Below, one piece after another: positions 2,750 to 24,182 of a stretch of DNA of 37,161 nucleotides. Position numbers and translations under genes: made by a program. The stretch comes from a virus. The notes below the pieces were generated by a model. That model saw only the letters and a program-made list of their open reading frames with translations, was not told the DNA's origin and did no database searches. Each line of letters begins with the position of its first letter. Within the stretch, counting starts at the first letter, position 1. The DNA lies in the UHGV virus genome UHGV-0110762; one strand, given 5' to 3'.

Positions 2750-3312
2750 GCGGCGCATTGGCGCTGCTCCATCAACTCGTTAAAGCGATTGATGAACATG
2801 CCGTATGACTGGCCAGGACGAACTGGGTTGATAATGAATAAATCCGTTGGGACAACTCCCTCGAGGCATGGCCAAATGGAACCTTCGTCAATCTCAAAAT
2901 CTCGGCGTTCGCTGGCAAGCATCACCAGGTCGGCATATTTCACAGTTGGGTGTTGTTCCGTCGGTAGGCCAAATTTCTGGCGAATAGCAGCGTCTACGCG
3001 AGCTTCGATCGCCTGGTAATCCGGTAGCAGGCGCTTAAGAGGCGAGGGGATATCCTGCAGGTAGGCTTCGGCGGCATCATGAAGCAGTGCTTCTAATGCA
3101 AACTCCTGCGGAACGAGGTGGCTGGTTAAAACGCTATGCTGGCCGACGCTATAAAACTCAGGAAGATGCCCTGCAAAACGGCAGATATGAGACAAAGCGG
3201 TAGCAATATCCTCGATCACGATATCGTCCTGTTGGATATCGAGGTAATTAAAATGTTTGCCGGATAATGTCTGAATGTAGCTCATGGTTTTCCCCATATT
3301 GGCGCGCTGCAC
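2746..3312 (-). CDS. HD-domain metal-dependent phosphohydrolase, YfdR-like (5'-deoxynucleotidase family); start may be at 3285 (MSYIQ)
   Basis: H..LTSHLV and LLHDAAEAY motifs (HD signature); size about 180 aa as in E. coli CPS-53 YfdR. Confidence 0.7.
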   Translation of the reverse strand: MQRANMGKTMSYIQTLSGKHFNYLDIQQDDIVIEDIATALSHICRFAGHLPEFYSVGQHSVLTSHLVPQEFALEALLHDAAEAYLQDIPSPLKRLLPDYQAIEARVDAAIRQKFGLPTEQHPTVKYADLVMLASERRDFEIDEGSIWPCLEGVVPTDLFIINPVRPGQSYGMFINRFNELMEQRQCAA

Positions 3313-3377
3313 CGCGCAGATTTTGGTTGTACGAATCCCTCGCCGGTTGGCGATAATTAATGGAATTACGCTTCAAT

Positions 3378-3401
3378 AAATCCCCGCGGCGCCGGGGATT
3401 T
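3378..3401 (-). terminator. Hairpin (AAATCCCCGCGGCGCCGGGGATTT) followed by T-rich tract on the minus strand, downstream of the YfdQ-like gene
   Basis: Near-perfect GC-rich inverted repeat flanked by A/T runs in the 100-bp gap between two minus-strand genes. Confidence 0.45.
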
Positions 3402-3413
3402 AATGCAGAGCAA

Positions 3414-4241
3414 TTAGGCTTTAAAGTTACCGATGAAAGTTTCCACTGATTCACCTTCGAACTTGCTGATCAGCAAATCGCGGAATTCGTTGGCGATCTC
3501 TTCTTCCTGGGCTTCAAGTTGGACGATGCGCAGAACAAAGCAGGGTTCATCGCTGGTCAGCAGGCTGTTACGCAAGCTAAAGCGGCGTTCACCCAGACCT
3601 TCATACGGCACACATTTGAACTCGAACGCCACAGGCATTACGTCTTTGCTGCTTGCTTCAACGCTTTGCATCAGAGATTTTTTACCAGCGAAATCACCAG
3701 TTTCATGGTCCTGCTGTGTTGCTTGCTGAATAGTGATACGACGCACAGCCTGAGCCGCCTGTGAAATCTGCATCGTATTGCCATCAGCATCAAACGCCAG
3801 CAGGTAATCGCTCCAGTCTTCCAGCCATTCCGCGATTTGCTTTTGCTTCAGGCGTTGACCATCGATCTGCAGTAACGCTCGGAACGGGGCGGTTTTCTTC
3901 AGGGTGATTGAAGCAACGTTATCGGCGTGACCTGGATTATCCAGGGTGCCGATGTTGAACACTGAACGGGCGGTCATGTTGTCAGCGTCAATGAAGCAAC
4001 GAGCTGGCTCGCTGGCGCTGGCATAACCTTTAGAATAACGGGCGAAGTCGTCAATACTGGTTGTGGTCATTGCGCCACGAAAGCGGAAACGCTCCAGAGA
4101 AAAACGCTCGAGGCTTTCAACGCCAGTACCCTCTGGCAGTAATGCGGTCGGGCAAGCCAGGTCCTGAATATCATCCAGGTGATAACCGGAAAGAACCAGG
4201 TCTTTGACCTGCTTGAAGGTGCCGCTGTCTAACTGAGACAT
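3414..4241 (-). CDS. YfdQ-like protein (DUF2303 family, function unknown)
   Basis: 275 aa, the size of E. coli CPS-53 YfdQ, and sits between YfdR-like and YfdP-like genes in the same order as in CPS-53 (recalled, not searched). Confidence 0.6.
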   Translation of the reverse strand: MSQLDSGTFKQVKDLVLSGYHLDDIQDLACPTALLPEGTGVESLERFSLERFRFRGAMTTTSIDDFARYSKGYASASEPARCFIDADNMTARSVFNIGTLDNPGHADNVASITLKKTAPFRALLQIDGQRLKQKQIAEWLEDWSDYLLAFDADGNTMQISQAAQAVRRITIQQATQQDHETGDFAGKKSLMQSVEASSKDVMPVAFEFKCVPYEGLGERRFSLRNSLLTSDEPCFVLRIVQLEAQEEEIANEFRDLLISKFEGESVETFIGNFKA

Positions 4242-10952: not shown

Positions 10953-11944
10953 GAGCTCTGCTTACCCCCGAGATCGCCCATCGTATGGGGATTGTGCTGT
11001 TCCGTCCCGGTACGGAACTGATGCACCTCTTCATGCGTGGTCGCGTTCTGCTCGAGCCTGAACCAGAAGAAATGGCGTCATTCAGTACCGGGGCTGTTCC
11101 GGCAGCCATTCAGCCGCTAGCTGATGATCCGGTAATGCGTCAGGTCTTCGAGAATGAGAGGGTTATTCAGCGTGCCGGTGGGCTTCCTTCCCTTGAGCAA
11201 TGGTTGAGTAATCGGTTTGAATGCCAGTGGCCACATTCAACGTGGCACGACAAGAACTTCACAACAATGCGGCACCCACCAGGAAGTATTCGCCTGTGCT
11301 GGCATTGCGATCACACTTTGTCGGGGCAGCATACCGAACAGCTTGCAGGTATAGCGGCCGGAAACCTGGTATCCTGGATTCTGGAAGTCATTCGGCGTGA
11401 TTCTGGTTTTCCCGAGTCGCATATCCTGACGCTTCCTGAACTGTGCTGGTGGATGGTCAGAAACGACCTGGCTGATGTTATTCCGGAAAGCGTTGCGCAC
11501 AAAGGGTTGCGCCTTCCGGATGAGAAGATCCGTTCTGTCATGAGGGAAAGCGACATAGTGCCTTCCTCGTCAGCAACCAGACTTGTGCAGGAGAAGGCGA
11601 AGAAGATCCTCACGCTCTCTGTTGATCCGGAGTCGCCAGAGTCTTTTATGCTCAGGCCAAAACGTCGCCGCTGGATAAATGAGACGTACACCCGCTGGGT
11701 TAAAACACAACCCTGTGAGTGTTGCCGACGGCCAGCAGATGATCCGCACCATATCGTAGGGCACGGTATGGGTGGTACAGCAACAAAAGCCCATGACCTC
11801 TTCGTGATCCCTCTGTGCAGAGAGTGCCACGACGAGTTACACGCCGATGTACCAGCATTCGAGCAGAAGCATGGTACGCAGCTTGAGCTGCTACTGCGTT
11901 TTATGGATCGGGCGCTGGCGATCGGCGTAATTGCGAAAGCTTAA
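10949..11944 (+). CDS. DUF968-like protein with C-terminal HNH-like zinc finger (YdfU-like)
   Basis: GTG 10949 overlaps the upstream stop (GTGA); C-terminus CECCRRPADDPHHIVGHGMGG...CRECHDELH. Confidence 0.55.
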   Translation: MRALLTPEIAHRMGIVLFRPGTELMHLFMRGRVLLEPEPEEMASFSTGAVPAAIQPLADDPVMRQVFENERVIQRAGGLPSLEQWLSNRFECQWPHSTWHDKNFTTMRHPPGSIRLCWHCDHTLSGQHTEQLAGIAAGNLVSWILEVIRRDSGFPESHILTLPELCWWMVRNDLADVIPESVAHKGLRLPDEKIRSVMRESDIVPSSSATRLVQEKAKKILTLSVDPESPESFMLRPKRRRWINETYTRWVKTQPCECCRRPADDPHHIVGHGMGGTATKAHDLFVIPLCRECHDELHADVPAFEQKHGTQLELLLRFMDRALAIGVIAKA

Positions 11945-11960
11945 GAAGTATGGAGACCGT

Positions 11961-12791
11961 ATGAATCTGGACAATGTTTTAAAGTTTTTTGCGCCTAAAG
12001 GCATGCACATATCAGATACCAGTAGAGCGACAGCCAGTGAACAACTGACGGTTACTGATGTAATGGCTGCATTGGGGATGACTCAGGCCGATGCGGGGAT
12101 CGGGCTGGCAATGTTTTTAGGTAAAGCTGGTATCAGCAGCCAGGACAGAGAGGCGTCAATAACCTGGCTAACTGAGTACGCGAAAGAGCATGCGCCCATG
12201 GCCATTCGCAAAGCATCAGGGAAAAAGTTTCCCCTCTGCATGCGTATCCTTGCCCGGTTTGCCTATAACGATTATTCCTCATCAGCAGCTGATTGTGTGG
12301 CATGCCCAAAATGTAGTGGTAAAGGGTTGCTTACAACCACTAAAACCGTGACTAAAAGCCATTACACAATGCGATTGCCACAATGGGCAAAAGACCTGAG
12401 ACAGTCACCATCTGACTTTGAGGTAAAGCGAGAAGTAACTGACTCCGAGCAAAGTTTATGTTCGCGATGCCATGGTACCGGAAAGTTAAGTAAGCGATGC
12501 CAGTGTGGCGGAACTGGCAAGACGGTTGACCGTAAAGCGACAGAACTGCAGGGCGTACCAGTTTACAAAGAATGTAAGCGCTGCGAAGGGCGGGGATACA
12601 GCAGGCCAAAATCATCGGTTGCCTATCGAGGTGTTTTTTCTGAGTTGCCGAGTCTGCCTGACCGAACGTGGCGTTATAGCTGGAAACCATTCTATGAAAG
12701 CCTGGTGACCAAATGTTTCCAGGAGGAGAGTTATTCAAGCTCTCAACTGAATCGGGTGACTAAAAGTGAAGATGTGATAAATATCGCGTAA
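11961..12791 (+). CDS. Putative late-gene antiterminator (Q-like by position) with four DnaJ-type CxxCxGxG zinc-finger repeats
   Basis: ATG 11961 with GGAGA RBS; CPKCSGKG, CSRCHGTGK, CQCGGTGK, CKRCEGRG repeats; lies directly upstream of a strong promoter plus short-transcript terminator and the lysis genes, the position of lambda Q. Confidence 0.45.
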   Translation: MNLDNVLKFFAPKGMHISDTSRATASEQLTVTDVMAALGMTQADAGIGLAMFLGKAGISSQDREASITWLTEYAKEHAPMAIRKASGKKFPLCMRILARFAYNDYSSSAADCVACPKCSGKGLLTTTKTVTKSHYTMRLPQWAKDLRQSPSDFEVKREVTDSEQSLCSRCHGTGKLSKRCQCGGTGKTVDRKATELQGVPVYKECKRCEGRGYSRPKSSVAYRGVFSELPSLPDRTWRYSWKPFYESLVTKCFQEESYSSSQLNRVTKSEDVINIA

Positions 12792-12834
12792 TTTAGCGTC
12801 ATGATGTTTGCAATGTTGCCGTATTTGTGTATAT

Positions 12835-12862
12835 TTGACATCAATGATGGGCTTTGTATAAC
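12835..12862 (+). promoter_or_regulatory. Strong sigma70-type promoter (TTGACA-16 bp-TATAAC), candidate late promoter pR'
   Basis: Perfect -35 TTGACA at 12835-12840, 16-bp spacer, TATAAC at 12857-12862, 44 bp after the Q-like gene stop. Confidence 0.55.
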
Positions 12863-12880
12863 TATCGATCACTATGATAA

Positions 12881-12903
12881 CCTCACCTCGGTGGGGTTTT
12901 TTT
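12881..12903 (+). terminator. Rho-independent terminator (candidate tR') about 20-35 nt downstream of the promoter
   Basis: Hairpin CCTCACC-TCG-GTGGGG followed by TTTTTTT; promoter plus immediate terminator is the arrangement Q acts on in lambdoid phages. Confidence 0.5.
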
Positions 12904-12914
12904 ATGGTGATAGT

Positions 12915-13451
12915 ATGGAACTGACTAAAGAAAATGTTGCATTAATTGCTGCTTTGGGGATTTTTGTGGGTACATTGATAACTTCTCTTACAAGTTACCT
13001 CCAGAACAGTAGTAGGCAGTCGCATGAGTGGCGCTCAGAAAGAAATAGAAGGAAAATTGAAAAGGGTGAACAGCTTTATGAGGCATTAATACTTTATAAA
13101 AAATTGCTTTTTGCCAATCATATGAGCTGGATAAATTGTATTGATGGGTGTTTTAAATCTGAGGACATTGGCGATAAATCAGACGAAATTCTCAGTAAAA
13201 ACCCTGAGTATAAAGGAGTTGGTGATAGAATTATTTTAATCTCTGGTGTTTATTTTCCTGAGATTAGCGTTATGTTTGATGAATCTAGAAAATTGCTGAA
13301 ACCAGCCAATTCTGTTTTCTTCAAAATACAGTCAGGTGAAGTTGACGATAAGAAATTGGCGAAGAATATAATTCTAAACGCTGGTCATAATTTTGATAAG
13401 GAGGCTAATAAAATGTTGGACTGTTTATCGAAAGAGATTAGATCGTTGTAA
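12915..13451 (+). CDS. Moron: membrane-anchored hypothetical protein (179 aa, one N-terminal TM helix)
   Basis: AT-rich codon usage distinct from surrounding phage genes; N-terminal hydrophobic segment VALIAALGIFVGTLITSLTSYL followed by a charged soluble domain; between tR'-like terminator and holin. Confidence 0.5.
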   Translation: MELTKENVALIAALGIFVGTLITSLTSYLQNSSRQSHEWRSERNRRKIEKGEQLYEALILYKKLLFANHMSWINCIDGCFKSEDIGDKSDEILSKNPEYKGVGDRIILISGVYFPEISVMFDESRKLLKPANSVFFKIQSGEVDDKKLAKNIILNAGHNFDKEANKMLDCLSKEIRSL

Positions 13452-14815: not shown

Positions 14816-15085
14816 ATGGGACTTGAAATGATTATCGGCCTGATTGTTGCCGCGCTGGCAGCAATTGCAGGTGCCTTTGGTCTGGGTAAATCTCGCGGTA
14901 CCAGTATCGCAGAAACAAAAGCGGACCAGCAACGCACTGAAGAGCGTGCAGCAGCTACAGAAGCGGTAGCCGAACGCCGGGTAGAAACAACAAAAGGAGC
15001 CAGGGATGTACAGCAGACTGTTAATCATCTTCCTGATGACGATGTTGACCGCGAGTTGCGCGAAAAATTTACCCGCAAAACCTGA
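14816..15085 (+). CDS. i-spanin (Rz-like), N-terminal TM helix plus charged periplasmic domain
   Basis: ATG 14816 after GAGG; MGLEMIIGLIVAALAAIAGAF TM segment followed by Glu/Arg-rich helical region; directly after the endolysin. Confidence 0.6.
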   Translation: MGLEMIIGLIVAALAAIAGAFGLGKSRGTSIAETKADQQRTEERAAATEAVAERRVETTKGARDVQQTVNHLPDDDVDRELREKFTRKT

Positions 15086-15248
15086 AGTAACGGACACGGC
15101 CTGTGACTGGGTGAGCATCATCTACCTCACTGAGCACGATATTGCCGTGCTGGATAAACAGACGAAGCGGGACATATTGGCGCACAACAAATCAGTGCAG
15201 GCTAACTGCATGAAGGAGCCAGGTCGTGAACGTAGAGAACCTAAGTGA
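15006..15248 (+). CDS. o-spanin (Rz1-like) lipoprotein candidate, overlapping the 3' end of Rz in another frame
   Basis: Signal-peptide-like N-terminus ending LTASC (lipobox-like Cys); overlapped Rz/Rz1 architecture. Confidence 0.45.
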   Translation: MYSRLLIIFLMTMLTASCAKNLPAKPEVTDTACDWVSIIYLTEHDIAVLDKQTKRDILAHNKSVQANCMKEPGRERREPK

Positions 15249-15456
15249 CGCGCATTACATCTATAACGAGATGAAAGAGCTACAGCGACAGAAAGGCATA
15301 CTGGAAAGCGGTGCCGGACTTGGGGTGACAATCCAGTCGACCTATCAGGATAATGCCTTTCTTGATGCCATACGCCCGCATGCAGTGGATGAACTTGATC
15401 GGCGTATAGAGGAGAAAAAAGATGTACTGGTTAATTTGGGCCTCTCCTTCTCTTAA
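15226..15456 (+). CDS. Hypothetical small protein (76 aa)
   Basis: GTG start 7 nt after a perfect AAGGAG RBS (15213-15218). Confidence 0.45.
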   Translation: MNVENLSDAHYIYNEMKELQRQKGILESGAGLGVTIQSTYQDNAFLDAIRPHAVDELDRRIEEKKDVLVNLGLSFS

Positions 15457-15472
15457 ACTATCATGCATTACA

Positions 15473-15495
15473 GCAGGCACGTATCAGGTGCCTGC
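15473..15495. terminator. Palindromic hairpin between convergent genes (possible bidirectional terminator, no clear U-tract)
   Basis: GCAGGCAC-GTATCAG-GTGCCTGC perfect 8-bp inverted repeat between the stops of 15226..15456 (+) and 15502..15942 (-). Confidence 0.35.
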
Positions 15496-15501
15496 CATCA
15501 G

Positions 15502-15942
15502 TTAATAGGATATTTTATCGGAAGACTTGAGCGCTTTTAATGTAGCTTCAAGTATATCGAGAAATAGATCAACATCTTCATAATCATAAGATGGATTAGG
15601 TTTGTACTCCCCAATGTAAACCAACCCATTTTTACCTAAAAAGAAGCTAATTACTTCCTTGTTATTTTCATCAGTTGAGTCAGTTGCAACGAACTTCAAA
15701 AGAGGGGCTTCATTGATGACTACCAGTTTCTCATTGAAAACGAGTTCTAACCCATATGTTGAAAGTTCTAGGGTTAGTCTGTTTTCTGCATCTTGATTGA
15801 AAATCAAGGTGTTAGAAGTTAAAGAACTTTCTTTGCATGAGTCAATAACGTTTTTCTTAAGTTTGATTGCTTTTTCATCTAAAGCCTTTTTGTGTTCTGC
15901 ACACTTAATAACCTTACGGACGTCTAAATAGTCGATGCTCAT
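15502..15942 (-). CDS. Moron: hypothetical acidic protein (146 aa), opposite strand to the late operon
   Basis: ATG 15942 with AGAGG RBS; strongly AT-rich; no TM segment; no recognisable motif. Confidence 0.5.
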   Translation of the reverse strand: MSIDYLDVRKVIKCAEHKKALDEKAIKLKKNVIDSCKESSLTSNTLIFNQDAENRLTLELSTYGLELVFNEKLVVINEAPLLKFVATDSTDENNKEVISFFLGKNGLVYIGEYKPNPSYDYEDVDLFLDILEATLKALKSSDKISY

Positions 15943-16033
15943 AATTAAACCTCTTATTGATGAGTTAATAAACATTGAGCCATTAAGGCCAATATCAATA
16001 CTAAAGAATGAGAAAGTTTAAGTTATTAGAGTT

Positions 16034-16321
16034 ATGTCTCAATTTGATGCCACTTCGAACACAAAAATGAACCTAACAAGAGGTCATATGCGTCTAACTG
16101 TATTAGATGACGATCCCGGCAGGAAGATTAATCTCGGTGTAGAGCGATACGCTGTTTTTCTCGATGGTATAGAGGTTAAGCATGTCTTCACTGCTGACGA
16201 TGAGAAGGGCGAAGTAATCGCAGCCGTTCCTGATGAGCGTGGTTATATGACGACAGAGAACGGTGAAGTGAAGCGGCATACGCTTCACGGCTCTGTGAGG
16301 ATTGAACCATGCCAGCGTTAA
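16034..16321 (+). CDS. Hypothetical small protein (95 aa, or 77 aa from ATG 16088 which has an AGAGG RBS)
   Basis: ORF divergent from the 15502..15942 gene across an AT-rich intergenic region. Confidence 0.4.
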   Translation: MSQFDATSNTKMNLTRGHMRLTVLDDDPGRKINLGVERYAVFLDGIEVKHVFTADDEKGEVIAAVPDERGYMTTENGEVKRHTLHGSVRIEPCQR

Positions 16322-16446
16322 TCCCTCGCGCATGTCGCAAGAGAGGTTGTCCCGGTACGACTACGGACCGTTCAGGCTACTGCGCTGATCACAAAGACTT
16401 TACCGCAGGCCATGTAGTCTTCGCGCTTCAGATGGCTCGGTGGTAG
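16309..16446 (+). pseudogene. Probable N-terminal remnant of a phage HNH endonuclease (45 codons)
   Basis: Translation MPALIPRACRKRGCPGTTTDRSGYCADHK matches the characteristic N-terminus (C...GC......YC..H) of HNH endonucleases found next to terminase genes, but the ORF stops after 45 codons and lacks the HNH core. Confidence 0.35.
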
Positions 16447-16478
16447 GATTATCCTCTTTTTAAATAAGGGATATATCA

Positions 16479-16778
16479 ATGAAAAAGACAATTCTGGGTG
16501 TCATTGCTTTGGGTCTGGTCGGTTGCGCGACGGTGGGTAAAGACTTTTCGGAAGCAGATGTCACCTCAATCCAAAAGGGGGTTACGACTGAGCAGGCTGT
16601 TTTGCAGAAGTTCGGTAAGCCAACCTCAGTAACTGCCGATTCCGAGGGCAATAAGATTTATGGTTGGACCTACGCTCATGCAACAGCGTTCAGCGTGGGG
16701 CAGGGCAAATCGCTCGTCGTCAAAGTAAATAAGGACGGCGTGGTGGATTCATACATCGTGAGCACTTCAAGACCGTAG
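16479..16778 (+). CDS. Lipoprotein with SmpA/OmlA (BamE-like) domain; moron in the bor-equivalent position
   Basis: Signal peptide MKKTILGVIALGLVGC with lipobox LVGC; mature domain pattern G.T..QV...G.P.......Y.W.Y.......L.V.F...G.V as in BamE/OmlA. Confidence 0.7.
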   Translation: MKKTILGVIALGLVGCATVGKDFSEADVTSIQKGVTTEQAVLQKFGKPTSVTADSEGNKIYGWTYAHATAFSVGQGKSLVVKVNKDGVVDSYIVSTSRP

Positions 16779-16931
16779 CATGCTATTTGCAGCCTCGCTC
16801 TCGCGGGGCTGATAGTTAACATCATCATGTGAAGACACATGCTCATGTCAATTACCCCTCAGCGCACCCGGCGCAACGAACGTAATACCTATTCTTTTAA
16901 CCTGCTTATCAGGCATAACCAGAGGCCCAAT

Positions 16932-17273
16932 ATGGCTAAAAACTACTACCAGGACGGCAATACAATGGACTGGCATAACGGGACCACAAAAGATGTGGTG
17001 TCAGGTCAACCGGTGATTGTTGGTGCGATCATCGGTATCGCTCAGCACGATATCGCCGCCAGCGGTGATGGTGTTCTGATGATGACCGGAGTATTCGTCT
17101 TGCCGAAGGTTGCAGCTGAGACCTAGCAGCGCGGGGTCCGACTCTGGCTGACGAAAGATGGCAAGTTGACCAGTAGCTCGAAGGATGGCACTGATGACAA
17201 CGCCGTTGCAGGCACTGCGTGGATTACCACCAATGCAAACGACCCTGAGGGTCGCGTTCGCCTCGGCTTCTAA
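16932..17273 (+). pseudogene. DUF2190 / phage cement (head decoration)-like paralog interrupted by an in-frame amber codon (TAG 17124-17126); uninterrupted product ends at 17126
   Basis: ATG 16932 with AGAGG RBS; translation aligns residue-for-residue with the decoration gene at 23859..24182 (LPKVAAET*QRGVRLWL vs LPKLAADDIAQGKTVYF) and the frame stays open after the TAG to a TAA at 17271-17273. Confidence 0.5.
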
Positions 17274-17380
17274 CCATCAGCCCCATCCAGCGCCCAGACT
17301 AGCCGGGCAACCCCGCCAGATCCCCACCTCAACTGATAACCATTCTCATATGGACGGGTCCTCCCGGAGGGGTGGCCTGC

Positions 17381-17410
17381 CACGAGGCGGCGGGCACGCG
17401 GAAAACGGCT
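17381..17410. other. Candidate cos (cosN-like) site upstream of the terminase small subunit
   Basis: AGGCGGCGGGCACGCGGAAAACGGC resembles the lambda cohesive end region GGGCGGCGACCTCGCGGGTTTTCGC (recalled); position immediately 5' of the Nu1-like gene. Confidence 0.3.
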
Positions 17411-17501
17411 AGTTTTCGTGATCCAGGGTCATCATCATCATGTGCATAACTGTATGATTTTTATCAGTGACGTTTTGCAATGATGTCGAATCGTTCAAAA
17501 A

Positions 17502-18002
17502 GTGTTCACCATCATGGACCAGGAGCTTTCCACCCTGAAGCTGAACATCAATCAGCTGGCAGGGATCACCGGCGTTCATCGCCAGACCGTTGCCGCCAGG
17601 CTTAAGCAACTCGAGCCTGCGCTGGGCAGCAACAACAAACTCAAACTCTACCTCATCACTGATGTGCTCACCGAACTGATGGCGCCCGTCGTCGCGTCCA
17701 GCGCCGAAGATATGACGCCCTCGGACAGGCTCGCCCACTGGAAAGCGGAAAACGAGCGGCTCAAATTTGAGCAGGATACCGGCCAGTTAATCCCGGCAGA
17801 TGAGGTGGCCCGTGAATTTTCTGTCATGGCAAAAGCTGTGGTGCAGGTGCTGGAAACGTTACCGGACATTCTGGAGCGTGACTGCGCGCTGAACCCCGCA
17901 GCTGTCAGCCGCGTGCAGAGTGTGATTGACGATCTTCGCGACCAGATTGCGCAGCGCGTGCTGGACGCAGAACCGGAGGAGGATGAGCCAGAGGAGGACT
18001 GA
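17502..18002 (+). CDS. Terminase small subunit, lambda Nu1-like (start may be ATG 17514)
   Basis: N-terminal HTH-like KLNINQLAGITGVHRQTVAARL as in Nu1; overlaps the start of the large subunit gene (TGATG). Confidence 0.7.
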   Translation: MFTIMDQELSTLKLNINQLAGITGVHRQTVAARLKQLEPALGSNNKLKLYLITDVLTELMAPVVASSAEDMTPSDRLAHWKAENERLKFEQDTGQLIPADEVAREFSVMAKAVVQVLETLPDILERDCALNPAAVSRVQSVIDDLRDQIAQRVLDAEPEEDEPEED

Positions 18003-20104
18003 TGGCGAAGCGGGCATCTGCCCGGGGGATCCGAAAGGATGTCCCTGGAATACTTCGTGCCCCACGCCGCATGCTGGTGGCCGATGCAGTCAGTAAATTT
18101 ATGCGCGTGCCAATGGGTGCCGGTAACTCCGTTCCCTGGGATCCGAACCTGGCTCCGTATGTACTCGAGCCAATGAACTGCCTGGCGTCGCGTGAGTATG
18201 ACGCGGTGGTGTTTGTCGGCCCGGCGCGAACGGGGAAGACAATCGGCCTGATTGACGGGTGGGTGGTTTATAACGTGGTCTGCGACCCGTCTGACATGCT
18301 GATTATTCAGATGACAGAGGAAAAGGCCCGCGAGCACTCGAAGAAACGACTGGATCGCACATTCCGTTGCAGTCCGGAAGTGGCAACCCGCCTGAGTCCC
18401 CGCAGGAACGATAACAACGTTTACGACAGGACATTCAGGGCGGGTAACTACCTCAAGATAGGCTGGCCGTCGGTCAATATCATGTCCTCGTCGGATTACA
18501 AGTGCGTCGCCCTGACAGATTATGACCGCTTCCCGGAGGATATCGACGGGGAAGGTGATGCATTTTCCCTGGCCTCCAAGCGTACCACCACGTTTATGTC
18601 GTCCGGCATGACGCTGGTTGAGAGTTCGCCAGGCCGGGACATTCGCGATACGAAGTGGCGCCGGAGCTCGGCGCACGAAGCCCCACCCACAACCGGCATT
18701 CTGTCACTGTACAACCGCGGCGACCGCCGCCGCTGGTACTGGCCATGTCCGCATTGTGGTGAGTTTTTCCAGCCAGAGATGACGGCGATGACCGGTTACC
18801 GGGAAATCAGCGATCCGGTAAAGGCCAGCGAAGCGGCCTGTATCCATTGCCCTTCCTGCTCCGGGGTGATCACCGCCGACCTGAAACGTTCCCTGAATAT
18901 GAAAGGTGTCTGGCTGCGTGAGGATCAGCAGATCGACAGCAGCGGAACAATAACGGGCACCGGACGGCGGTCGCGAATAGCGTCGTTCTGGATGGAAGGC
19001 CCGGCAGCTGCATATCAGACCTGGGCACAACTGGTTTACAAACTGCTGACCGCTGAACAGGAGTACGAGGCGACCGGCAGCGAAGAAACGCTGAAGACGG
19101 TCATTAACACCGACTGGGGACTCCCGTATCTCCCGCGCTCCAGCATTGAACAACGTAAAGGTGAGGAGCTGCAGCAGCGCGCCGAACCTGTTGAGCGCCG
19201 GCGCGTGCCTGCTGGCGTCAACTTCCTGGTGGCGACCGTCGATGTTCAGGGCGGTAAAAACCGGCGATTTGTGGTGCAGGTTGTTGGCTACGGCGCCCAC
19301 GGCGAGCGTTGGGTGGTTGACCGGTACAACATCATGCAGTCGATGCGCACCACGCCTGACGGCGAAAGCTACCACATCGATCCTGCCAGCTATCCGGAGG
19401 ACTGGGATCTGCTGCGCACCGATGTGCTGGAGAAAACCTGGGCGCTTGATGGCGAACCGGGCAAGCGAATGGGTCTGCTGGCCATGGCCGTCGACTCCGG
19501 TGGTGAAGATGGCGTTACCGACAATGCCTATGAGTTCTGGCGGCGCTGTCGCCGTGACGGTCTGCAGCGCAAAGTCTGGCTGTTCAAGGGTGACAGCCAG
19601 ACCAGGGCGAAGCTGATTACCAAAACCTACCCGGATAACACCGGGCGTTCTACCCGGCGCGCGAAGGCCGCCGGTGATGTCCCTCTCTACCTTCTCCAGA
19701 CCAACGCACTGAAAGACCGGATCAACAACGCGCTTTGGCGCGATGTGCCGGGGCCGAACTTCGTGCATTTCCCTGACTGGCTGGGAGGGTGGTTTTACGA
19801 CGAACTGACCTATGAGGAGCGATCAGCTGATGGGAAATGGACGAAGCCTGGTAAGGGGGCTAACGAAGCGTTTGACCTTATGGTTTACGCACATGCCCTG
19901 GTCATTCTTCATGGTTACGAAAAGATTAAGTGGCCTGATGCCCCTGAGTGGGCGCGCCGGGAGAGTTATCTGGTGGTTGAGCCATCGCCAGACGCGCCTG
20001 CAGTGGCACCGGAGCCGGTTGCAAAACCGTCAGTATCAGAGCCTAAGGCTAAGAAACCAGCCCGTGAATCGGCATGGTCATCATCATCAGGAGGCTGGGT
20101 GTGA
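18002..20104 (+). CDS. Terminase large subunit, lambda gpA family
   Basis: 700 aa; N-terminus and Walker A-like VFVGPARTGKT, size and gene order as lambda A. Confidence 0.9.
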   Translation: MAKRASARGIRKDVPGILRAPRRMLVADAVSKFMRVPMGAGNSVPWDPNLAPYVLEPMNCLASREYDAVVFVGPARTGKTIGLIDGWVVYNVVCDPSDMLIIQMTEEKAREHSKKRLDRTFRCSPEVATRLSPRRNDNNVYDRTFRAGNYLKIGWPSVNIMSSSDYKCVALTDYDRFPEDIDGEGDAFSLASKRTTTFMSSGMTLVESSPGRDIRDTKWRRSSAHEAPPTTGILSLYNRGDRRRWYWPCPHCGEFFQPEMTAMTGYREISDPVKASEAACIHCPSCSGVITADLKRSLNMKGVWLREDQQIDSSGTITGTGRRSRIASFWMEGPAAAYQTWAQLVYKLLTAEQEYEATGSEETLKTVINTDWGLPYLPRSSIEQRKGEELQQRAEPVERRRVPAGVNFLVATVDVQGGKNRRFVVQVVGYGAHGERWVVDRYNIMQSMRTTPDGESYHIDPASYPEDWDLLRTDVLEKTWALDGEPGKRMGLLAMAVDSGGEDGVTDNAYEFWRRCRRDGLQRKVWLFKGDSQTRAKLITKTYPDNTGRSTRRAKAAGDVPLYLLQTNALKDRINNALWRDVPGPNFVHFPDWLGGWFYDELTYEERSADGKWTKPGKGANEAFDLMVYAHALVILHGYEKIKWPDAPEWARRESYLVVEPSPDAPAVAPEPVAKPSVSEPKAKKPARESAWSSSSGGWV

Positions 20105-23778: not shown

Positions 23779-23796
23779 TCACCCCGACATTGAACC

Positions 23797-23817
23797 GGCC
23801 CGTAAGGGCTTTTTTTA
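23797..23817 (+). terminator. Short hairpin plus T7 tract between capsid and decoration genes (probable partial terminator)
   Basis: GGCCCGTAAGGGC followed by TTTTTTT; a second perfect 8-bp inverted repeat ATGGCCCC-GGCA-GGGGCCAT at 23827-23846 abuts the decoration gene RBS. Confidence 0.45.
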
Positions 23818-23858
23818 TATCTGCAACATGGCCCCGGCAGGGGCCATACGGAGAGCTC

Positions 23859-24182
23859 ATGAAGAATTTCGTACAGGATGGTCACACTATCGATTTGACC
23901 AACTCGGGGTCGGCGGTGATTGCCAGTGGCACGCCGGTTGCCGTTGGGGATGTTCTGGCGATCGCTATCGCTGATATTGCCGTCGGCGAAACTGGTACGG
24001 GCCTCACCAGTGGCGTAGTCCAGTTGCCGAAGCTGGCGGCGGATGATATCGCCCAGGGCAAGACCGTTTACTTCAAAAGCGGGAAAGTGCAACTGGAGGC
24101 CACCGGCGCGACCCCCGCAGGGAAAGCCTGGCAGGCTGCCGGTGCGAACGCCGCCGCCGTACTGGTTAAGCTTAATGGCTAA
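23859..24182 (+). CDS. Head decoration / cement protein (DUF2190 family)
   Basis: ATG 23859; MKNFVQDGHTIDLTN...GVVQLPK...VYFKSGKV...VLVKLNG pattern of the family; located just after the capsid gene. Confidence 0.7.
   Translation: MKNFVQDGHTIDLTNSGSAVIASGTPVAVGDVLAIAIADIAVGETGTGLTSGVVQLPKLAADDIAQGKTVYFKSGKVQLEATGATPAGKAWQAAGANAAAVLVKLNG

Follow-up and report, generated by a model that had tools for sequence, protein, structure and literature searches.

We examined the DNA that separates the lysis genes from the cohesive end site (cos) in the 37,161 nucleotides (nt) of the virus genome UHGV-0110762 (the window). The region of interest, positions 15457-17300, holds five open reading frames (ORFs), all of them present where an earlier note on this DNA had placed them: a 146-amino-acid (aa) gene on the strand opposite to the late operon, a 77-aa gene, a 45-codon stub of an HNH endonuclease gene, a lipoprotein gene, and a paralog of the Phage_cement_2 (DUF2190) head-decoration family that is interrupted by an in-frame TAG. 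The coordinates of these and of neighbouring features are given in Table 1. The composition shift described in the earlier note is real; it is confined to 15457-16079, where the guanine-cytosine (GC) content is 0.343 versus 0.528 for the whole window. Packaging and head genes downstream of the region are intact. The window contains neither tRNA nor tmRNA genes, and an Rfam scan of 15000-17700 at E values up to 1 returned no non-coding RNA. The region is probably the right-end cargo zone of a lambdoid Escherichia coli prophage, spanning the joint of two exchangeable modules. The lysis-to-packaging stretch is an ordinary recombination joint and moron hotspot, well resolved, that holds two uncharacterised cargo genes.

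Table 1 Features of the lysis-packaging junction and its neighbourhood (positions in the window)
Feature	Position	Strand	Description
76-aa small gene	15226-15456	+	Overlaps the end of the o-spanin gene; last gene of the lysis-linked block
AT-rich moron cassette	15457-16079		623 bp, GC 0.343; precise insertion between the 76-aa stop codon and the 77-aa ribosome-binding site
GC-rich hairpin	15473-15495		8-bp stem, GCAGGCAC-7 nt-GTGCCTGC; at the left cassette edge, directly beyond the 3' end of the 146-aa gene; no U-tract
146-aa acidic cytoplasmic protein (isoelectric point 4.9)	15502-15942	-	Antisense to the late operon, in a bor-like slot
Candidate sigma-70 promoter of the 146-aa gene	16015-16042	-	TTGAGA-16-TAAACT, 9/12 matches; inside the cassette
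77-aa all-beta phage protein	16088-16321	+	In HK97-type relatives, 13-nt overlap with the start of the HNH gene
HNH endonuclease 5' stub	16309-16446	+	45 codons, about 25-29 of them HNH-derived; catalytic motif gone; recombination joint
99-aa lipoprotein	16479-16778	+	Lipobox LVGC, Ala at +2; BamE/SmpA-OmlA-like domain; junction cargo gene
Second Phage_cement_2 (DUF2190) head-decoration paralog	16932-17273	+	113 codons; inactivated by TGG to TAG at 17124-17126 (G to A at 17125)
Conserved cos region	17330-17500		cosN inferred at about 17385-17396 (AGGCGGCGGGCA)
Lambda-type terminase	17502-20104	+	DUF1441 small subunit (TerS) 17502-18002 (Pfam E=6e-42); GpA large subunit (TerL) 18002-20104
Canonical head-module decoration gene (Phage_cement_2)	23790-24182	+	Pfam E=2.3e-22; directly after the protease-capsid fusion gene

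Two packaging modules are joined within an HNH gene remnant

The left part of the region belongs to a block of HK97-type prophage origin that comprises the 76-aa gene, the 146-aa antisense gene, the 77-aa gene and the 5' end of an HNH gene; the lysis genes are part of this left arm too. Window positions 15200-16382 share 99.7% identity with a prophage of E. coli ARL09/232 whose full 116-aa HNH gene is followed by a P27-type TerS gene, a TerL gene, and HK97-type portal, protease and capsid genes. Residues 1-25 of the stub are identical to this HNH protein (WP_048217952.1), and the stub matches PHROG 144 (HNH endonuclease) over residues 1-32 with an E value of 5.8e-7. The core of the intact protein lies at about residues 65-110. 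The stub ORF stops at codon 45, and we found no Pfam HNH match to the catalytic core (beta-beta-alpha-metal, PF01844) within it, in agreement with the earlier description of a truncated gene.

DNA similarity to intact HNH genes stops at 16382-16384 in each of the 11 HK97-type loci compared, and the fusion point of the two modules lies inside the stub, near 16382-16395. The block to its right, made up of the lipoprotein gene, the decoration paralog, cos, and the DUF1441 TerS and GpA TerL genes, is a lambda-type packaging arm. All 11 loci read with this lipoprotein allele have in common the stub tail and the lipoprotein, cement, DUF1441 and GpA genes. The terminase downstream of the stub is of the DUF1441 and GpA type, and a Terminase_4 (P27) TerS with its TerL was seen as a neighbour in relatives only.

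For cleavage at cos, HK97 relies on an HNH protein, gp74, that promotes the reaction, and lambda lacks a counterpart (PMC9410871); packaging HNH endonucleases of the gp74 type are attributed there to Kala et al. 2014. The HNH core is thus expected to be lost once a lambda-type arm has been swapped in. The stub resembles the gp74-type genes in that its N-terminus is identical to one of them and in that relatives carry such a gene directly upstream of P27-type TerS and TerL genes; unlike them, it lacks the catalytic core, and its neighbour is a lambda GpA-type terminase, which cuts cos without an HNH partner. Since the left arm is HK97-type, with an intact HNH gene in its relatives, and the right arm is of a lambda type that needs none, the stub is best read as the scar of a packaging-module exchange and not as the remnant of an inserted homing endonuclease.

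A single 3' tail is joined to three HNH 5' alleles: that of the window, that of the related loci L012 and L013, and that of the Leclercia locus L027, which is frameshifted. From this pattern we infer that the fusion is old. The stub is probably not a functional small protein; it may now serve as a homology patch for swapping left arms between the two phage types, and the several alleles of the leftover HNH 5' end are consistent with later exchange between both types at this place. The junction is a base-resolved case of packaging-module exchange in lambdoid prophages, in which an HK97-type arm that requires an HNH partner gave way to one of the lambda type that does not.

Conserved genes of the left module

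The 76-aa protein matches PHROG 5415 (function unknown) over its full length with an E value of 1.9e-38, and its gene is annotated as hypothetical in ARL09/232 and SZQ1. Its cluster at 90% identity comprises 256 members from E. coli, Salmonella, Citrobacter and Klebsiella, and the ratio of non-synonymous to synonymous change (pN/pS) is 0.25 in comparison with SZQ1, as under purifying selection. The gene on the other side of the cassette had been described as a 77-95-aa ORF (16034-16321). The gene is real; its true start is the ATG at 16088, giving 77 aa, and the 95-aa form is an extension by cassette DNA. The longer ORF owes its first 18 codons to the inserted cassette; where the cassette is absent, the gene begins at the equivalent of 16088.

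Homologs of the 77-aa protein form more than 258 clusters in Enterobacteriaceae, and it is a widespread phage gene product; in cultured phages its gene adjoins an HNH gene. The gene is under purifying selection (pN/pS 0.21). Structure prediction, which the earlier note had suggested for this protein and for the 146-aa protein, produced a confident all-beta model here (predicted local distance difference test, pLDDT, 87.9) and a poor one for the 146-aa protein. The 77-aa model has no counterpart in the PDB, and in BFVD it resembles uncharacterised phage proteins only. On the minus strand of the ARL09/232 locus (L001, 6904-7080), at the equivalent of window positions 16103-16279, RefSeq annotates a 58-aa ORF in place of the plus-strand 77-aa gene. 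This gene model is probably wrong, because the 77-aa protein has so many homolog clusters.

The elements segregate independently

The earlier note had grouped the five elements as one island. Such an island could be a single coordinated system for defence or exclusion, with several genes gained as a unit; the elements are contiguous between two core modules and include both unknown proteins and an envelope lipoprotein, and 15226-16382 is nearly invariant among the loci that carry the AT-rich cassette. However, in 11 loci the left genes occur with HK97-type packaging genes and without the lipoprotein and cement genes, while L012 has the lipoprotein and cement genes and lacks the 76-aa, 146-aa and 77-aa genes. 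L006 and L008 lack the 146-aa gene with all else present, Sodalis and Citrobacter have the lipoprotein without the cement gene, and PADLOC recognizes none of the elements. These patterns of presence and absence indicate that the elements segregate independently and contradict the idea of a jointly acquired system, which we consider to have almost no likelihood of being correct. The status of the 76-aa and 77-aa genes as conserved genes of the left module, not variable cargo, likewise tells against an island. What lies here instead is two separately travelling modules that are fused within the HNH stub.

The proposal of repeated insertion and replacement at this site, by contrast with that of an island, held up: related prophages carry different cargo at the junction. 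The 146-aa cassette is present in some of them and absent from others; L013 has a YnfU gene instead, and Citrobacter carries a gp49/66-family gene, the lipoprotein gene and a GT2 glycosyltransferase gene. In the Leclercia metagenome-assembled genome, locus L027 has an AT-rich 150-aa antisense ORF (3222-3674, minus strand) in the same slot, similar to the 146-aa gene in size and charge and without a Pfam family. We considered it as a distant homolog of the 146-aa protein and rejected this on the basis of an hhalign probability of 0.8%; it may be an analogous cargo gene.

An AT-rich cassette carries a position-conserved antisense gene

Comparison of loci with and without the cassette gives exact boundaries. 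L002, L006 and L008 lack it and have about 11-19 nt in its place between the 76-aa stop and the 77-aa gene. Across 11 carriers the cassette shows at least 99.67% identity, whereas the identity of their endolysin genes to that of the window ranges from 69 to 100%. A near-invariant cassette in diverged backgrounds points to a single insertion that was spread by recombination.

The 146-aa gene of the cassette is annotated in E. coli ARL09/232 as RefSeq WP_057107373.1 and has a Shine-Dalgarno sequence, AGAGG, 7 nt upstream of its ATG at 15942. The hairpin beyond its 3' end was not called by a terminator scan. The family is small: it forms 12 clusters among 5.8 billion proteins, and a profile search of 1.8e9 representatives returned 9 proteins, two of which were long proteins matched over short stretches and were discounted without a check. 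Thirty-nine columns of the alignment are invariant down to 51% identity. All four divergent members with readable surroundings (the window copy, Pectobacterium P0012 at 52% identity, P0013 and P0014) lie on the opposite strand between the spanin genes and an HNH or TerS gene; the antisense slot is thus shared by homologs of 52% identity or less from Pectobacterium and other prophages. The protein matched no family, tblastn against phage records found no homolog, and a literature search on its RefSeq accession gave nothing relevant.

In position and orientation the gene corresponds to lambda bor, which suggests an accessory function that would be expressed in the prophage. Like bor, it maps between the spanin genes and cos, in a slot for small accessory genes that are dispensable for lytic growth, and it is antisense to the late operon with a putative promoter of its own; the lipoprotein of the region is, as Bor is, of the outer-membrane type. 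The two differ in that nothing here is related to Bor in sequence (no protein of the region matches the Pfam family Lambda_Bor at E values up to 0.1), that the lipoprotein of the region is encoded on the late-operon strand, and that the antisense product is an acidic cytoplasmic protein and not a lipoprotein.

A BamE-like lipoprotein is mobile cargo of the junction

The 99-aa protein has a signal peptide with a lipobox (MKKTILGVIALGLVG|C), the Cys of which is invariant in 15 homologs. It matches PHROG 3135 (function unknown; E=1e-20) far more strongly than the Cor family of superinfection-exclusion lipoproteins, PHROG 1119 (E=0.0012, 20 bits), where the match includes the signal peptide. The label BamE-like, given in the earlier note, is borne out weakly and at the level of the domain. 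Pfam BamE is matched by 13 of 15 family members (best E=2.8e-6) while the window protein itself stays below threshold; hhalign aligns the family with E. coli BamE over the whole domain at 45% probability (E=2.2e-4), and a profile search against the PDB retrieved BamE chains at weak E values of 0.25-1.5. Homologs in temperate Pseudomonas phages, 31-35% identical, are annotated as BamE or SmpA/OmlA, and one of them adjoins a repressor gene. These sequence comparisons give the assignment weak but consistent support.

The protein shares with BamE/SmpA-OmlA lipoproteins, including PHROG 3135 and gp52 of Pseudomonas phage YMC11/07/P54, a lipobox and, after it, one small domain that can be aligned along the full length of the BamE domain. 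It differs from BamE in its sub-threshold Pfam score and in being much shorter than cellular BamE outside the domain, and no role in the beta-barrel assembly machinery (BAM) is implied. Our literature search on phage BamE-like exclusion lipoproteins found nothing relevant.

The lipoprotein gene is under purifying selection (pN/pS 0.12-0.20) and occurs at the junction in three arrangements: together with the cement paralog in E. coli and Leclercia, directly before the TerS gene in Sodalis, and with a GT2 glycosyltransferase gene, an HNH gene and a different TerS gene in Citrobacter sp. OP27. Three packaging contexts at one junction indicate that it is a mobile cargo gene. The pair of lipoprotein and cement genes is constant in all 11 loci read with the window's lipoprotein allele and is also found in Leclercia, whose lipoprotein is 92% identical; more distant relatives in Sodalis and Citrobacter occur without the decoration paralog. 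We also observed about 50 chromosomal homologs (L030-L083), 33-43% identical to the phage lipoprotein, in Marinobacter species and in other marine and methanotrophic Gammaproteobacteria. The phage gene is probably derived from this cellular family of small lipoproteins.

A second decoration gene is inactivated by a single base change

The cos-proximal decoration gene matches Pfam Phage_cement_2 with 69.6 bits (cutoff 24) over profile positions 2-103 of 103, across the TAG, and PHROG 122 (head decoration) with an E value of 7.7e-25. A second member of the family lies in the head module, 39% identical to it (E=4e-16), so the term paralog used in the earlier note is correct, as is its report of an in-frame TAG. 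The stop replaces codon 65, which is Trp65 in relatives, and the reading frame in the window is not intact. Ten of 11 related loci have an intact gene, which differs from the window over 342 nt only by a G at 17125, and in the eleventh, L011, an independent 5-bp duplication shifts the frame. Intact alleles were found on 142 contigs; the allele cut short at 64 aa was found in independent samples, on 5-7 contigs, and other truncated forms are 80-92 aa long.

Could the TAG be something other than a knockout, either a sequencing error or a stop that is programmed or suppressed, so that both a 64-aa and a 113-aa product are made? The frame 3' of the TAG is fully preserved, and the Pfam match spans the stop. 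A difference of one base over 342 nt, however, means that this preservation reflects the recency of the mutation, and TGG stands in all 10 other full-length copies. Its recurrence on 7 contigs from independent samples marks the TAG as a genuine minor allele rather than a read error. With no tRNA gene in the window there is no phage-borne suppressor, and no Rfam element lies in 15000-17700; in other lineages the paralog has suffered unrelated disruptions. Both versions of this explanation are, in our assessment, highly improbable. The TAG is a circulating minor allele, a private single-base knockout of an otherwise selected gene and not a case of recoding.

Between E. coli and Leclercia the gene has accumulated 48 synonymous and 17 non-synonymous differences (pN/pS 0.11), the mark of purifying selection, which suggests that it is functional where it is intact. 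It is 63% identical to the decoration protein of Hafnia phage yong2, closer than to the copy in its own head module. It thus resembles the Phage_cement_2 decoration proteins of mEp043, mEp213 and yong2 in its full-length family match and its identity to the last of these, and is unlike them in being a second copy located upstream of cos, not in the head module after the major capsid gene, and in being inactivated here. Two decoration copies in one record were found in none of 50,697 phage genomes, and a literature search on DUF2190 yielded nothing relevant. A 14-nt inverted repeat (13/14 complementary; 16805-16818 and 17271-17284) brackets the paralog together with its upstream region. As the ends of a mobile element it was rejected, being at about chance level in 2.3 kb (roughly 0.4 expected, an estimate).

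The HNH stump, the amber codon, the frameshifted stub of L027 and the frameshifted paralog of L011 might also be taken to mean that the whole stretch is decaying junk of a defective prophage with no functional gene. Yet pN/pS stays between 0.11 and 0.25 across diverged copies of the cement paralog, the lipoprotein, the 77-aa gene and the 76-aa gene, the 146-aa family keeps its invariant columns and its slot across genera, and the downstream packaging and head genes are undamaged. We therefore regard general decay as very unlikely.

Possible roles of the cargo genes

From its bor-like placement, the 146-aa gene may benefit the lysogen, most plausibly by exclusion of other phages, and it is a reasonable candidate for an exclusion function. 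It would be driven from its own candidate promoter within the cassette and expressed in the prophage state like lambda bor. During lytic growth, a Q-antiterminated late transcript would run through the plus-strand genes, over cos and into the head genes, and the lipoprotein and the decoration paralog would then be made alongside the virion proteins.

A more far-reaching proposal joins two of these genes. The 146-aa protein could represent an undescribed prophage family of the antisense slot (in E. coli, Salmonella, Citrobacter and Pectobacterium) that acts as a lysogen-expressed, single-gene exclusion or anti-defence factor, and the cos-proximal second decoration protein could be a functional alternative cement, providing two interchangeable head-surface proteins. 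We put this combined proposal forward tentatively and think it unlikely to hold as a whole. Several results also weigh against our main reading of the region. PADLOC (PADLOC-DB v2) found no credible defence system among the proteins of the region, its sole match being a weak one of PDC-M24A to the 146-aa protein (E=0.0093, 14 bits) and the other proteins giving none. The candidate promoter is weak, as promoter-like sites in the region are not above shuffled controls, and the structure model of the 146-aa protein is poor (pLDDT 61.8, with one of five models above 42). The window lipoprotein scores 14.9 bits against Pfam BamE (PF04355), below the cutoff of 23.2. Finally, the separate knockouts of the decoration paralog (the amber codon here, the L011 frameshift and the 80-92-aa forms) show it to be dispensable in the prophage state.

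The lysis-cos junction thus offers three testable cargo genes: a position-locked antisense orphan, a phage-borne BamE-like lipoprotein, and a second capsid-decoration gene under purifying selection. They leave views of phage biology unchanged; their worth lies in annotation and as candidates for exclusion screens.

The cos region and a second cargo slot

Similarity to phages mEp043, mEp213, Eeyore and LLS starts at 17330, and the LLS record opens at its cohesive end, GGGCGGCGCGCT, opposite window position 17385. The cos region is kept in Leclercia and Sodalis. In the adjoining terminase, GpA_ATPase and GpA_nuclease domains were found in the identical TerL genes of related loci. Within the 37 kb of the window, the 12-nt motif CATCATCATGTG is present exactly two times (16820-16831 and 17433-17444), where 0.25 occurrences are expected. 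One copy lies about 100 nt upstream of the cement paralog; the other precedes the TerS gene by about 60 nt and falls within the conserved cos region. Leclercia retains both copies, and in Sodalis the cos copy is almost preserved (CATCATCATCTG). The motif might be a binding site of the small terminase or a regulatory site.

A second AT-rich gene (12801-13451, plus strand; 216 aa, GC 0.349) lies between the Q antiterminator gene (11931-12791) and the holin gene, the slot in which Shiga toxin (Stx) phages carry stx. Its product has one hydrophobic segment and no PHROG or PADLOC match, with a weak, sub-threshold Pfam match to HemY_N. Related loci have either this gene or a 198-aa gene in the slot. 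For an undescribed function it is a candidate no worse than the region studied here, which the earlier note had ranked as the best such location in the window. In L017 (8435-9643) and L019 (8718-9641), DDE transposase genes of insertion sequences (IS) closely precede the holin genes and lie within or next to the gene of this slot; the Q-holin slot also appears to be an insertion target.

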